NCBI GenBank assembly: GCA_051599415.1
Contig: AP039691.1
Span: 434,001 to 498,000 of the forward strand
DNA: 64,000 bases
Direction: 5' to 3'
From: Savitreella phatthalungensis
Lineage: Eukaryota
Shown here: positions 601 to 8,410 of the stretch, one piece after another
Layout: every line of letters begins with the position of its first letter
How positions within the stretch are numbered: the stretch's first letter is position 1
Translations under genes and position numbers: made by a program
Notes under the pieces: model-generated
Told to the model about the DNA's origin: nothing
The model's database searches: none
Seen by the model: only the letters and a program-made list of their open reading frames with translations

Positions 601-1500
601 CTAGACCTCGATAATCTCACCTGCGTGTTTGTCGTACCAACGAGTCAGATCGGCTTGGATGTGACGCATCGCAGCGCGAATGGCGTCCTTGTCTCGGATG
701 GCAGGTTGCGGTGGATTGGTAAATCGCGGCGAGGTGACTGCTCCATATGGTGAGCCATCTGCCGTTGTGTCTCGCTCGAGCGAGATTTCCTGCATACTTG
801 TGTCTTCTGCTCCGGCACCGGTACTAGCAACGGGTACACTGCCACGCATCGCAGCCACGAGAGATTCCAGATTCGTGATTCTGCTCTTGAGTCGCCGGTT
901 CTCGAGCTCGAGATTGGTATCGGCAGGCTGTGATTCTTTCGTCTTTGCCGAGCTTGTTTTCGCCTCATCTCGTAGGGCTTGCAAGTCCATCTGCAGTCCG
1001 TCCCGCTCGAGTTCCAAAGCATCGAACTTCGTTTGAAGTGAATCCAGTTGAGACGTTAAACCATCCTTGTCCTTCTGCAGCGATGAGGATGTGTCGGTAG
1101 CGGATGTTTGTTCGTTCAATGTCGATTTTTTCAGCTTCTCCGTTTCATCCTGGGCAGACTTGACGTCCTTTTCGAGCGACTTTACCTGATCCTTGGTCTT
1201 CTTTAAAGTTTCCTCGAGCTCGGTGACCTGCTTCTTGCTGACTGCTAATGCATGCTCAAGCTCAGACACGCGATTTCTCAACGTTGCAAGCTCAGCTTCA
1301 TGATCAGCGGCGGTGCTCTTCTCTGTTTGAGCGTCATCCGCAGGTGCTGATTCTGTTTTCTCCACGGACTTGTCATCCATTGTGGCAGTGTCGTCGGCAG
1401 TCGACTCTGGCTCGTCTGTGGTAGATTTCTGGCCCTTCTTCGCTTTGAGCTCTGCGGCGCGTTTCCTGGCCGCTGCGAGTTTTGCTTCCTTGTCTGCCAT
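601..1500 (-). CDS. Coiled-coil golgin, Bug1/GM130-like
   Basis: Likely ATG at 1500 (MADKEAKLAAARKRAAELK, resembling the GM130 basic N-terminus); long heptad coiled coil; hydrophobic C-terminus GEIIEV resembling a GRASP/PDZ ligand. Confidence 0.55.
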   Translation of the reverse strand: MADKEAKLAAARKRAAELKAKKGQKSTTDEPESTADDTATMDDKSVEKTESAPADDAQTEKSTAADHEAELATLRNRVSELEHALAVSKKQVTELEETLKKTKDQVKSLEKDVKSAQDETEKLKKSTLNEQTSATDTSSSLQKDKDGLTSQLDSLQTKFDALELERDGLQMDLQALRDEAKTSSAKTKESQPADTNLELENRRLKSRITNLESLVAAMRGSVPVASTGAGAEDTSMQEISLERDTTADGSPYGAVTSPRFTNPPQPAIRDKDAIRAAMRHIQADLTRWYDKHAGEIIEV

Positions 1501-2448
1501 CGGGTGATGCTTATCACAGGCAGTAATTGTGCTGTCTTGTTGTATCAGGAGATGCACCTGGTCAGTGACAAGTGTGCATATGGACGATGGCGTGGATGCG
1601 AGTGTGCATGTGTGAGTGTATGGGCGTACGCGTGTGGAATTGAAGTATGAGTGTGGAGTGAATTTGATCATGATTCACACCACGCAGACTCACCATGCAT
1701 ACGGACGATATAGAAATTACGTGCATCTGGTAACTCATACAAAACTTATCTAACATGCATTGAAGTTGAAAGTTGTGTCGAAACTGAATCTAGCCAACTT
1801 TGACATTATTTTCGAGCTAGAAGGCTTTTTGGACCTAATTTGTATATGTGAAGGTTTAAGATCCGCGGGAGTCTTTAGACACCCAATCACATGCAAATTC
1901 ATTCTCTCTATTGTATAGACGTCCATATGCAGCATACGTACAGATATATATCGTTCCAGAAAGTCAGTTCAATACATGTGAATTGAATAGAATTGAATAT
2001 AAAGTTGACTATATATATATATATAGATTGACTTATTACTGGAGATTTAATTGTGTACACACTCAATCACGCACAGACACATGCACGTGTCACAGGTCCA
2101 CAAGGGCCAACTGACTAACTCACTTTCCTCATTCATCTGAAGCGGACTTTGTCTCTGGATCTTTCAACGCAAACTTCAGACTCGCTTCAACGTGGCCGGT
2201 GTACGTTCAGTCACCTGGCTTTCAATCAGACTCGGAGCGCACGGACCTCGCTTTTCCGCTGGACTTTTCACGCGACCTAATCCCCTGAACGGCAGAATAT
2301 CTCCGAGTCGCTTAGGCGACCCTACCTACGCGCCTAATCCACCTTCTCTGCTTCCGCACATAAGGGATCTGGCTGGGCGCAGGTATTTAGAGAACGCGAC
2401 TGGCAGGGAAGTTGCCGCGCTCTTCACTGACACTCTCCTAAGTCGAGT

Positions 2449-3915
2449 ATGATCATCTCTGGCGTCAAGCACGCGTGTGCAAAGTGCATCCGTGGCCACC
2501 GGTCCAGTACTTGCAACCATCCAGACAGACCGCTCTTCGAGATCAGGAAGAAAGGGCGACCCGTTTCCCAGTGCCCACACTGTCGCGACTTGCGCAAGAT
2601 CAAGTCTTCCCACAACAAGTGTGAGTGTGGCGCCCATCCGGGAGATGAGACTGGTAATGGCACCTGCCAGTGCCATTCGGGTGCATCGTGCACATGTGCA
2701 GGTCAGCCCCAAGTTTTCCAGTATATACCGCCGGATTTGTCAAATGCCAGCACAGTCACTGGCTCGACAGACACTCCCAGTACCCCACTCGGGCCAGCGA
2801 CAAAGTCAACAACATCATCGTCAAATGCGCCAGCATCCATGCTCCACGTCTTTGATCTCGGCAAAAACTTGAACACTGGTGGCAACAACGGTATCGTTAC
2901 TAGCAACCCAATGAGTACTCCCGCTTTCGCAGCCGACTTTGCTCGCAGCTTCAGCCATTCTCATCATGGTTCGTCTGGCGCACAAACACCTGTTGAGGAC
3001 CCTATTGCAGGGTTCAATTTTGCTCTGCCTGATGCGGCACTCTTTCCATCGTTACCTGAATCCCCCTATCAGACACAACCCAATCAGTATCATGTTGCCA
3101 GAGGCCATGGACATCACCGAAGTGCATCTGGCACGCCAGAACTCTCCATGCGACCCTCGCAGAAGCGCACTTTATCACAACTCAGAGATGTTAACCCTTC
3201 ACCGACCTCACGTACCATCGGTGTCAATACTGAAGCGCTACCTGCAGGTATCTGGCCTGCAGATCCGTTCGAGGTTCCAGCGTGGCAGCAGGCACAGCGC
3301 AACGCGGAAGCTAGTGCCTGTTGTCCCAAGGTCAGAGACATGCCACTTAAGGATCTGCCCTTCGATGCTCAGAACTTGGCCGCGTCCACAGCCTATAATC
3401 ACGACGAGGATGAGGAAGACTTGCACAACGTGCCTGCGTTCTCAGTGTTCTATGGCACCGGCATCCACAAAGACAACGATTCTCCACCTGACGAGCACGA
3501 GCTGCTTGCGGCAATTGACCACGCGACTCTGCCTGAGGGTGTCCGAGCGCTCGAGCCGGATTACGACGATGCAGCCGCCGCAATGGAGTTTGACCCAGCA
3601 TTCTGGGACAAACTCATGGAGGTTCCGGGCTGCTCAATTCCTGGCGTACAGTGCAAATGCGGAGACGGCTGCTCATGTGCCGGTTGTCAGACACACACGG
3701 ACAATGCGCCACACGTTGCCGCCGCCGAGCTAGAGCGGATGGATGTCAGCACAGAATCGAATGCAAAACGTCCTGCTCGGCAGCATCCTCCTGGCTGCTG
3801 CGATACTCGTGATCTCCACAAACGCGTCAAGCAACATGTTGCACGCGAAGCGTCTGACGAGGACACTCCCGCGGATTCCTCTGACGGCACTCACAGCTGC
3901 TGCTCGGCCAAGTGA
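2449..3915 (+). CDS. Copper-fist transcription factor (Ace1/Mac1/Cuf1 family)
   Basis: N-terminal CAKCIRGHRSSTCNH...KKGRP copper-fist domain; C-terminal CKCGDGCSCAGCQTH motif. Confidence 0.9.
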   Translation: MIISGVKHACAKCIRGHRSSTCNHPDRPLFEIRKKGRPVSQCPHCRDLRKIKSSHNKCECGAHPGDETGNGTCQCHSGASCTCAGQPQVFQYIPPDLSNASTVTGSTDTPSTPLGPATKSTTSSSNAPASMLHVFDLGKNLNTGGNNGIVTSNPMSTPAFAADFARSFSHSHHGSSGAQTPVEDPIAGFNFALPDAALFPSLPESPYQTQPNQYHVARGHGHHRSASGTPELSMRPSQKRTLSQLRDVNPSPTSRTIGVNTEALPAGIWPADPFEVPAWQQAQRNAEASACCPKVRDMPLKDLPFDAQNLAASTAYNHDEDEEDLHNVPAFSVFYGTGIHKDNDSPPDEHELLAAIDHATLPEGVRALEPDYDDAAAAMEFDPAFWDKLMEVPGCSIPGVQCKCGDGCSCAGCQTHTDNAPHVAAAELERMDVSTESNAKRPARQHPPGCCDTRDLHKRVKQHVAREASDEDTPADSSDGTHSCCSAK

Positions 3916-6426: not shown

Positions 6427-6856
6427 CTCGACTGTGTCCTGCCCCACGGTGGGCTCGATGGCTTGTACACGGTCACTGTATCTATATCTAATGAATGACA
6501 GCAGAGAAGTGAAGCTTGATTCGTTGTGAGATGTCTTGTTGCAGTACAAACTGTATGGCAGATGCTGTACTCTTCTGCCATTGTTGTGCTGCTGACCTTG
6601 CTGCTGTTGCTGTTGCCGCATTTTGACTCTGATTTCCAAGTTGACCAATCGCATGCAAGCTAATTGCGTAACTCAGTCTTCAATGCTCGACTTGACTTGT
6701 CTTCCCATCGAGGACGAATCCAATCGACTGAATCCGTGGGGGTAGGCAAGCAACGCAATCGGTACCAGTACACAGCTCCTAGCAAGCTTTCATTGTCATT
6801 TTCAAAGGATCAGAGCGCTTTTGACCCCGACACGAAGCTCAAGATTCTATCTGATC

Positions 6857-8410
6857 ATGTCGTCCGATGCAAAGTGCCCAGTCACCGGCAGCGCAGTTTC
6901 TGCGCTTCCACCAGATCATCCAAAGGTCAACGGGGGCGGTGTTTGTCCAGTCACCGCAGCAACAACGGAGCATCACAACAATGTCGTTCACGAACACCCG
7001 CCTGTTCCTCAGGGATCCTCGGAGAAGGATTGTCCCGTGCTGCGCGCAGCTAAGGAATCGAACACATGCCCCGTGGTCGGCACGAATGCAGCAGCGCTGC
7101 CCCCCAATCACCCGGCACCTGAGTCTCTCGATGGGCAAGTCTGTCCTGTGACGCACGCCAGCAAGGCGCATCACCAGAACGTCGTGCACGAGCACCCCGC
7201 TGTGCCGAAGAATGCAAGCGCAAAGGACTGCCCCGTTTTGTCCGCTAACAGCGTGGCAGCCGCAAAGGCTGATGCAGAGAAGGCTGCATCTGAGCGCTGC
7301 CCGGTCACCGGATCGAAAGTCACAAGCTTGCCGCCGGACCATCCGTCTGTGGCGAATGGAGGTGTCTGCCCAGTCACCAAGGCGTCCGTCGATCATCATG
7401 AGAATGTGCAAGCCCACCCGAAGGTGCCAAAAGGCGCTTCCGCCAAAGACTGCCCGGTCTTGCAGGACAATGAGTGCCCTGTTGTCGGTACCAATGCCGC
7501 AGCTCTGCCACCAAATCATCCAACAAAGACGACCGGCACGTGTCCCGTCACAGGTGCCAAGGCTGAGCACCACAATGGCAGCGTGCACCAGCACCCTGAC
7601 GTAGCATCAACGAATGATGCAGCAGTCTGCCCCGTCACCGGTGCATCTGCAGGTAGCCATGCTAATGCAGCCCCCAGCAACGGTGCTCCAGCCCAGTGCC
7701 CTGTGACTGGTCAGTATGCCGATGGATCCCGCCCGGCAGTCCAGATCCCAGCTCACGTGGCAGCCCAGCCGATCACGTTCACCGTCCTGGGCAACCCATT
7801 CTCCACCTACACACGTACGCTGACTATGGGACTACACGAGTGTGGCATCAGCAATTTCACGCAGAGGGGCTACCTCCCGTATGCCAAGGAAGTCTACGAG
7901 CACAACCCATTCGGCCGCATCCCGGTCCTCCTCGTCGGTCATGGTGGACAGGAGTTGGCCATGCACGAAACAGAATCTATCGTGCGCTACCTCGACGCCA
8001 GCAACTCGCGCGTCCTGCGTTTCAAGCCCGAGGAGCTTTTGAAGAATCAGAAATTGGAGGAGTGGACTTCGATTGTCACATCTTATGTCTTTGGAGCTGT
8101 CGAGGGTGGTGTCGTGAAGCCAACGCTCAAGGATGCCAACGCGGACGTTTCTGCAGGGCTCGAGAAGATGCACGAGGTCCTCAAGATTGTCGAAACCAGG
8201 ATGCAGGGACCCTATCTGATGGGCATGCCAACAACCTGGCCTGACCTATTCCTTTACCCGATTCTCGCCGACCTCAAGGCATCGAAGCACGGCGCCGAAT
8301 TGCAGAAATACCCCAAGCTGGCTGCATGGACCGAGCGCATGTCCAAGCGCAAGTCAGCTCTTGCCACGAAGGAGGGCACTCTCGAGGTCCTCGGAGGACT
8401 CCCGAAGTAA
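6857..8410 (+). CDS. Glutathione S-transferase with an N-terminal Cys-Pro-Val/His-rich repeat array
   Basis: C-terminal GST fold (FSTYTRT, NPFGRIPVL, ETESIVRYL, YLMG..TWPDL, YPKLAAWTERM); 13 CPV motifs in the N-terminal half. Confidence 0.8.
   Translation: MSSDAKCPVTGSAVSALPPDHPKVNGGGVCPVTAATTEHHNNVVHEHPPVPQGSSEKDCPVLRAAKESNTCPVVGTNAAALPPNHPAPESLDGQVCPVTHASKAHHQNVVHEHPAVPKNASAKDCPVLSANSVAAAKADAEKAASERCPVTGSKVTSLPPDHPSVANGGVCPVTKASVDHHENVQAHPKVPKGASAKDCPVLQDNECPVVGTNAAALPPNHPTKTTGTCPVTGAKAEHHNGSVHQHPDVASTNDAAVCPVTGASAGSHANAAPSNGAPAQCPVTGQYADGSRPAVQIPAHVAAQPITFTVLGNPFSTYTRTLTMGLHECGISNFTQRGYLPYAKEVYEHNPFGRIPVLLVGHGGQELAMHETESIVRYLDASNSRVLRFKPEELLKNQKLEEWTSIVTSYVFGAVEGGVVKPTLKDANADVSAGLEKMHEVLKIVETRMQGPYLMGMPTTWPDLFLYPILADLKASKHGAELQKYPKLAAWTERMSKRKSALATKEGTLEVLGGLPK

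Follow-up and report, generated by a model that had tools for sequence, protein, structure and literature searches.

A 64-kb stretch of the genome of Savitreella phatthalungensis (contig AP039691.1), hereafter the window, contains a gene in which an array of Cys-Pro-Val (CPV) motifs with accompanying histidines is joined in one reading frame to a glutathione S-transferase (GST). The gene and its features are listed below by window position, with the residues of the encoded protein (P0001) in brackets.

6857..8410, plus strand: complete single-exon coding sequence of 517 amino acids (aa) plus stop, running without interruption of the frame from the ATG at 6857 to the TAA at 8408-8410
6857..7735, plus strand: N-terminal CPV/His repeat region (aa 1-293), with 13 CPV and 21 His, without Phe, Trp or Ile, and with no confident AlphaFold2 fold
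6875..7039, plus strand: repeat unit 1 (aa 7-61), of the type CPVTGS..LPPDHP
7067..7237, plus strand: repeat unit 2 (aa 71-127), of the type CPVVGT..LPPNHP
7298..7459, plus strand: repeat unit 3 (aa 148-201), of the type CPVTGS..LPPDHP, in the unit tree the sister type of unit 1
7475..7636, plus strand: repeat unit 4 (aa 207-260), of the type CPVVGT..LPPNHP, its third CPV reading CPVTGA
7694..7735, plus strand: the 13th CPV, within QCPVTGQ(Y/F)ADGSRP (aa 280-293), a segment that immediately precedes the GST fold
7799..7999, plus strand: N-terminal, thioredoxin-like GST domain (aa 315-381), Pfam GST_N_2, E 4.8e-8, 33.9 bits
7802..7804, plus strand: codon of Ser316, in PFSTYTR, a candidate catalytic serine that aligns with the 'mst' of Phi-class GST chains and is invariant in 13/13 aligned sequences
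8144..8350, plus strand: C-terminal helical GST domain (aa 430-498), Pfam GST_C, E 9.3e-9, 35.9 bits

The CPV motifs begin at residues 7, 30, 59, 71, 96, 125, 148, 171, 199, 207, 229, 258 and 281, and all 13 cysteines of residues 1-290 sit within them, the sole other cysteine of the protein (C329) lying in the GST. Over 20,000 composition-preserving shuffles of residues 1-290 the CPV count averaged 0.19 and never exceeded 4, against the 13 observed, and six-frame translation of the whole window yields 25 CPV in total, 13 of which fall in the frame of this open reading frame (ORF). The motifs are organised in four units starting at residues 7, 71, 148 and 207, with start-to-start lengths of 64, 77, 59 and 74 aa, followed by an extra CPVTGQ at 281. 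Each unit has the consensus CPV(T/V)G..LPPxHP..CPVT.A..HH..V..HP.V..CPV, in which the candidate ligand motifs occur in the order C-P, H-P, C-P, H-H, H-P, C-P, and the HH pairs occupy residues 39-40, 105-106, 180-181 and 238-239. Every cysteine is single, with spacings of 12-30 residues and no CxxC, CxC or CPxC. Residues 1-290 hold eight Leu, one Tyr, one Met and no Phe, Trp or Ile, and are rich in Ala, Pro, Val, Ser, His and Gly. An earlier note on this DNA had described a 13-CPV array with His pairs, four tandem units of this consensus plus one extra CPV, and an alternation between CPVTGS..LPPDHP and CPVVGTNAAALPPNHP; each of these was located in the translated ORF, all 13 CPV and four HH pairs included.

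The same note had placed the repeat and the GST in one continuous frame, and this is borne out by the single ORF, by the two Pfam GST domains lying in that frame, and by relatives of 54-70% identity in which the continuity is kept. These full-length relatives share the start Met and align over 97-98% of the window protein. In P0002-P0006 and P0009 (Taphrina deformans) the repeats run into the GST without any stop between them, and the frame is open across the repeats in at least seven sequences covering all 13 CPV sites. The initiator is the one Met of residues 1-290, and because the next, M324, follows both strand 1 and Ser316 of the GST, no internal start could yield an intact GST. The relatives of the protein point to the Taphrina/Protomyces group, and the gene order, gene density and intron-free ORFs of the window are consistent with a compact, yeast-like ascomycete genome.

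Alignment of 13 related Taphrina-like sequences, seven of which cover all 13 CPV sites, indicates that the Cys-Pro pairs and most of the histidines are under strong constraint. Cys-Pro is kept in 124/126 motif cells (116 CPV, 6 CPI and 2 CPA), the two exceptions being an SPV in P0006 and a divergent or misaligned stretch (TGA) in P0007. Likewise, 16 of the 21 N-terminal histidines recur in 85% or more of the relatives covering them, the variable ones being H45, H100, H105, H111 and H244. Linker lengths between the motifs vary, while the motifs stay constant. The most conserved stretch of the N-terminal half is aa 280-293, where Q280, C281, P282, V283, T284, G285, Q286, A288, D289, G290, R292 and P293 are invariant in 13/13 sequences, the short GSTs of Protomyces type (P0013 and P0019) among them.

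Because the 13 CPV are encoded by 11 distinct nucleotide 9-mers, the DNA identity between units is 51-58%, and Tandem Repeats Finder detects no tandem DNA array in 6700-7800, the repetition is old and has been maintained at the protein level. Direct repeats in the DNA are motif-sized only (15-27 nt). In a maximum-likelihood tree of 52 units over 58 usable columns, the first and third units of Taphrina-like proteins group in one clade with support of 99/94, and by this comparison are clearly one type. Unit 4 makes up a separate clade (94/82) close to the first unit of proteins from the Pezizomycotina, and unit 2 groups on the same side as units 1 and 3. The proposal that a two-unit block was duplicated is thus half borne out, as units 1 and 3 group but units 2 and 4 do not pair, and the tree neither demonstrates such a duplication nor contradicts it; the deepest split of the tree is weakly supported (40/31), and pairwise unit identities (A1-A2 64%, B1-A2 61%, A1-B1 56%, B1-B2 49%) give no clean A-B-A-B ranking.

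Exhaustive phmmer and word-index searches place the module in other proteins too, and the Pezizomycotina proteins in that tree belong to a large family. A search with P0048 (Cytospora mali, 153 aa) as query, over 499 candidates, returned 435 clusters at E ≤ 0.001, and the same query matches the window protein with a phmmer E of 8.7e-35. Among the best 120 of the 435 clusters, which were inspected, all named members are Pezizomycotina proteins of 145-206 aa, annotated as 'hypothetical' or 'uncharacterized'; the family includes Neurospora crassa NCU08130, Sordaria SMAC_03617, Chaetomium globosum CHGG_10006 and Cytospora mali VP1G_00354. These stand-alone proteins consist of two units in about 150 aa, with no GST attached. 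Exactly six Cys-Pro (CP) occur in 119 of these best 120 members, and 719/724 of their cysteines lie within CP, the next residue being Val in 619, Ala in 70, Ile in 24, Phe in 5 and Lys in 1. In an alignment of 80 members all six C-P are invariant, as are H21-P22, H42-H43, H49-P50, H105-P106, H126-H127 and H134-P135, which amounts to three invariant Cys-Pro and four invariant His per unit, at a mean column identity of 61%. By this sequence evidence, the window repeat is a doubled form of a two-unit ascomycete family conserved across the Pezizomycotina, and the stand-alone protein probably binds the same ligand as the window module, whatever that is. Four-unit proteins without a GST also exist, namely P0012 (Protomyces lactucae-debilis) and P0014. 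An ESM Atlas search with the N-terminal region added two clusters of ascomycete hypothetical proteins (scores 0.80 and 0.77), to be taken as leads only, and its named-protein search without PF09029 gave no usable match.

The fusion has a much narrower distribution than the module. It is present in P0002-P0011, and a survey for longer proteins carrying the module returned 16 matches from 785 candidates and found the GST fusion recurring only in the Taphrina-like set. Protomyces lactucae-debilis encodes the two parts as separate proteins, the module as P0012 (289 aa) and the GST as P0019 (260 aa), and the longest contig bearing P0012 and that bearing P0019 both measure 690,853 bp. Two CPV remain in P0019, as does the segment QCPVTGQFADGSRP. 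Of the 133 further proteins that match through the GST part, 1/133 has any CP[VI], and that one is P0019 itself. Since the fusion is found only in Taphrina-like fungi, has its two parts in separate proteins in Protomyces, and leaves a CP[VI] trace in just this one GST-part match, the link between the module and this particular GST is, as far as these sequences tell, a lineage-specific fusion or fission event.

In the linker of P0012 there is a lysine-rich KKAKKQK stretch that is missing from the window protein. Other partners of the module occur as singletons, were read as probable merged gene models, and were left unused as evidence of fusion: in P0018 (Cladophialophora yegresii, 595 aa) the module is joined to an MFS transporter, in P0338 (Pyrenophora seminiperda, 1003 aa) to an AMP-binding enzyme, and in P0340 (Boeremia exigua, 1469 aa) to a multi-domain glycosidase/rhodopsin model, all three probably merged genes, and a 300-aa Pseudopithomyces protein with the module is a further such case. 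If real, P0018, P0338 and P0340 would be additional fusion partners of the CPV module.

The GST itself looks like a working serine-type enzyme, closest to the plant Phi class, by both sequence and model. Its GST_N_2 and GST_C scores both exceed the curated Pfam cut-offs, and in the AlphaFold2 model strand 1 (E307-311) has a predicted local distance difference test (pLDDT) score of 85-92, and the helices at 394-425, 432-448 and 461-475 score 81-96. In Ser-type, Phi-like GSTs, a catalytic serine near the end of strand 1, a cis-proline and a Glu/Asp-Ser pair belong to the G-site; here S316, cis-Pro356 and S374 are invariant across the 13-sequence alignment and position 373 is Glu or Asp. Ser316 occupies what we take to be the catalytic serine position of Phi GSTs, named 'SER 13' in the titles of structures 4ri7 and 8ix7. 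The top sequence matches in the PDB are plant Phi-class GSTs (E 8e-15 to 1e-7), and the top Foldseek matches are PtGSTF7, AmGSTF1 and AtGSTF2 (E 5e-12, TM 0.76-0.83, identity 19-24%), the AtGSTF2 structure among them having been solved with non-substrate ligands. The nearest non-fused relatives of this GST are scattered among eukaryotes (Basidiobolus, Acrasis, Ceraceosorus and Ceratobasidium), and none carries the repeat.

Structure prediction gives a quite different picture of the repeats. In the AlphaFold2 model of the window protein, built on the 13-sequence alignment, pLDDT is below 50 for residues 1-56, 69-276, 279-285 and 288-292, against 85-95 for the GST, and the full-length model does not place the repeats against the GST with any confidence. 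The stand-alone protein, modelled from 80 sequences, reaches a mean pLDDT of 62 and a predicted template-modelling score of 0.44; two of its segments have pLDDT 70-77, and every residue stays below 90. The models thus describe a chain predicted to lack an autonomous fold, which would become ordered, if at all, around a ligand. Sequence searches of the PDB with the N-terminal 294 aa and with the 80-sequence family profile each gave 0 matches at E ≤ 10. Foldseek comparison of the stand-alone model with the PDB gave none at E ≤ 0.001 and three at E ≤ 10, the best being a rubredoxin at E 8.2, and VIA-align found 1 of 48,161 chains at Z ≥ 2 (Z 2.1); the confidence of that model (mean pLDDT 62) is too low for the fold to be called new.

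Of the Pfam models, only Preseq_ALAS (PF09029) is reached by the module, in 64/80 stand-alone members at E ≤ 0.01 (best 7.4e-6) and in 5/9 of the proteins scanned singly at E ≤ 1. Most of the scores lie below the 21-bit curated cut-off (11.5 bits, E 0.41, for the window protein; 19.7 bits for P0048), and as the proteins have no ALAS catalytic domain, the likeness is one between segments that bear such motifs and does not make them members of that family. The heme lyase domain PF01265 has no match at E ≤ 1 in P0001 or in eight family members, and no metal-binding Pfam family is matched at E ≤ 0.01 in the 80 stand-alone members. Scattered Pfam matches of family members range from E 0.045 to 0.73, among them HMBD at E 0.37 on P0048.

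Literature searches, with supplementary tables outside their scope, returned no mention of NCU08130, SMAC_03617, CHGG_10006, MYCTH_2308148 or Q7S4K1. Searches combining Taphrina with GST (judged by title and abstract), or heme regulatory motif with GST and Cys-Pro, returned nothing relevant, and one on the synthase presequence in fungi returned no match. Schizosaccharomyces pombe Hhy1 was considered as a relative and set apart by its description: the protein, of 463 aa, has a single CP and a single CPC, no repeat array appears in the passages on it, and the main text nowhere mentions glutathione (PMC13135908), so its architecture is a different one. No Pfam family, solved structure, named protein or paper found covers the module or the fusion. 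The earlier note had not recognised the architecture; its unfamiliarity holds for the fusion, as no characterised repeat-GST family appears in Pfam, the PDB or the literature, but the repeat itself is not unique, belonging as it does to a large ascomycete family.

We infer that the repeat region binds heme or a metal and, a step further, that the ligand is heme, with the stoichiometry, transfer and regulation sketched here following from that choice. The reading favoured, tentatively and at a little under even chances, is that a disordered array of heme-regulatory-type Cys/His sites captures labile heme beside a GST. The gene product would be a cytosolic two-part protein, with a flexible N-terminal stretch of 293 residues that has no hydrophobic core, followed by the GST, and its 13 CPV sites with their nearby conserved histidines would be of the heme regulatory motif (HRM) type. 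Each cysteine, its thiolate exposed by the Pro that comes next and with a Val at its flank, could ligate ferric heme reversibly, and a neighbouring His may serve as the sixth heme ligand. The array might in this way capture or buffer several labile heme molecules, to be held beside, or passed to, the serine-type, Phi-like GST, which could serve as a ligandin or come under the control of heme occupancy.

The likeness of Cys-Pro-Val to heme regulatory motifs, already drawn in the earlier note, agrees with the literature definition, given in two papers as a Cys-Pro whose Cys ligates Fe3+-heme, often with a distal His (PMC8808069, PMC9329541). All 13 CPV of the window protein have CP followed by a hydrophobic residue, and by prediction they lie in a flexible, exposed segment in which invariant histidines accompany each cysteine. 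The ALAS region represented by Preseq_ALAS is described as carrying HRMs 1-3, which bind heme (PMC9329541). Neither the window protein nor its family has a significant match to heme lyase or Hap1-type proteins in the Pfam and PDB searches. A 1996 report by Steiner, listed among the references of PMC4158909 and PMC4033779, is said, by its title, to identify the 'Cys-Pro-Val motif', the exact tripeptide found here, as a heme-binding motif of mitochondrial heme lyases.

Several observations weigh against heme capture. The Preseq_ALAS matches mostly fall under the Pfam cut-off (19.7 against 21 bits for P0048), and they could stem from a shared Cys-Pro, Pro- and His-rich composition, not from a common function. 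Nor does a CP dipeptide by itself ensure that heme is bound or that the motif is functional: mutation of Cys290-Pro291 in S. pombe Hhy1 left the hemin Kd unchanged (PMC13135908), the requirement for the CP motif in heme lyase has been questioned (PMC4158909, citing Moore 2011), and the HRMs of HO-2 are dispensable for heme buffering (PMC8808069). A mean column identity of 61% in the stand-alone family is unusually high for a protein that is disordered, and the segments at pLDDT 70-77 could be a ligand-stabilised mini-fold of another kind. Seven invariant Cys/His per approximately 60 aa would, as a sequence pattern, fit transition-metal sites equally well.

The last point leads to the strongest rival, in which the module binds a transition metal or a cluster, be it Zn(II), Cu(I) or a glutathione (GSH)-assisted [2Fe-2S], and acts as a metal buffer, sensor or carrier on a GSH-binding domain; this is rather unlikely, while deserving serious consideration. 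Each unit offers three invariant Cys and four invariant His, HH pairs and H-P included, and conservation this high in a chain without a hydrophobic core is consistent with folding around a ligand, as are the stand-alone segments at pLDDT 70-77. The attached GST domain binds GSH, which is a cluster ligand in monothiol glutaredoxin systems, and the HMBD match on P0048 (E 0.37) and the rubredoxin match in Foldseek (E 8.2) are weak leads in the same direction. Against a metal site, the module has no CxxC, CxC or CPxC, its lone cysteines standing 12-30 residues apart, and a metal would not account for the HRM signature, the near-invariant Pro and hydrophobic residue that follow every Cys. The searches brought up no metal-binding Pfam family at E ≤ 0.01 in the 80 members, no PDB sequence match at E ≤ 10, no Foldseek match at E ≤ 0.001 and a single VIA match of Z 2.1, though the lack of a match is compatible with metal binding.

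Less probable again, and improbable overall, is a thiol redox or glutathionylation scaffold, in which the 13 exposed cysteines would form a sensor or sink that is serviced or read by the GST, with no bound cofactor. Many exposed single cysteines in a chain predicted to be disordered and fused to a GSH-dependent enzyme would suit such a role, and the HRM cysteines of HO-2 reportedly, going by paper titles cited in PMC8808069, form a thiol/disulfide switch. The invariant His, the Pro-Val and the LPPxHP would nonetheless go unexplained, the stand-alone family carries no GST, and this GST has a catalytic-type Ser in place of the Cys typical of deglutathionylating GSTs. That the N-terminal half is a functionless low-complexity extension, or an annotation artefact joining two genes, would fit the pLDDT below 50 across the repeats and the two separate gene models in Protomyces, but is very improbable given motifs conserved from Taphrina-like fungi to the Pezizomycotina (phmmer E 8.7e-35 with P0048), 11 different codon triplets for 13 CPV, a frame open in at least seven sequences spanning the 13 sites, and no internal Met before 324.

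If heme capture by the array is extended to the whole family, the picture becomes one of a dedicated, ascomycete-wide cytosolic heme buffer or chaperone, in which NCU08130-type proteins would carry up to six hemes, and which Taphrina-like fungi would have doubled and joined to a ligandin-type GST as a heme sink or hand-off system of high capacity; this wider proposal is speculative and should be held as unlikely. The identity and capacity of the yeast heme buffer are described as poorly understood in a 2026 study (PMC13722074). The family is a concrete candidate for this labile-heme problem, workable in the model organism N. crassa through NCU08130, and were the buffer or chaperone proposal true, it would identify part of the labile-heme buffer in molecular terms. 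Should the ligand be a metal, the family would still represent an unrecognised, widely conserved Cys/His ligand-binding module for which no Pfam model or literature was found.

The fusion is flanked by housekeeping genes, those for ribosomal L23, guanylate kinase, COQ9, a DEAD-box helicase and NDK, which give no functional hint. Other features of the surroundings are as follows.

2449-3915, plus strand: gene for a 488-aa copper-fist protein with N-terminal PF00649 (E 4.7e-20), a Cuf1/Mac1/Ace1-type copper-responsive transcription factor
6645-6651 and 6720-6726, plus strand: pair of CCAATCG boxes within the 430-bp promoter region, spaced by 75 bp and lying 212 and 137 bp ahead of the ATG
6839-7606, minus strand: stop-free frame of 255 aa opposite the repeat region, rich in Arg, Cys, Gly and Trp
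601-1671, minus strand: ORF of 356 aa, with no Pfam family at E ≤ 1e-5

Three genes separate the copper-fist gene from the CPV-GST gene, which lies approximately 3 kb downstream of it, and there is no evidence of a link. The two CCAATCG boxes are, by sequence only, candidate sites for the CCAAT complex (HapX/Php4-type iron regulation); the motif is not enriched in the 64-kb window, where 10 were found against 8.9 expected. The antisense frame is most likely not a gene and merely mirrors the biased codon content of the sense frame.

Comparison with known systems brings out what is familiar in this protein and what is not. With the HRM proteins (Hap1, the ALAS presequence, HO-2 and heme lyase) it shares single cysteines followed by Pro and a hydrophobic residue, nearby His, predicted disorder and several copies of the motif. 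It differs from them in having 13 copies, in a regular three-per-unit repeat whose LPPxHP, HH and HP elements lie outside the HRM definition, and in that the CPV array makes up a whole conserved family and is no appendage of a heme-related enzyme or regulator. The stand-alone Pezizomycotina proteins have the same invariant C-P, H-P and HH pattern, to which the window protein adds two more units, for a total of four, the extra CPV and the GST.

On the enzyme side, the plant Phi-class GSTs AmGSTF1, PtGSTF7 and AtGSTF2 share the fold, the Ser at the catalytic position, the cis-Pro and the (E/D)-S G-site, but at only 19-24% identity, and the window protein is fungal. Ure2p is another ascomycete protein in which a GST fold follows a long disordered stretch at the N-terminus; that stretch is Asn/Gln-rich and prion-forming and is not known to contain Cys-Pro motifs, and no sequence relation between the two proteins was seen. 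CP-type heme motifs and GST ligandins are each known; new, as far as the searches reach, are the regular 13-site array, a family built only of such sites, and their fusion to a GST.

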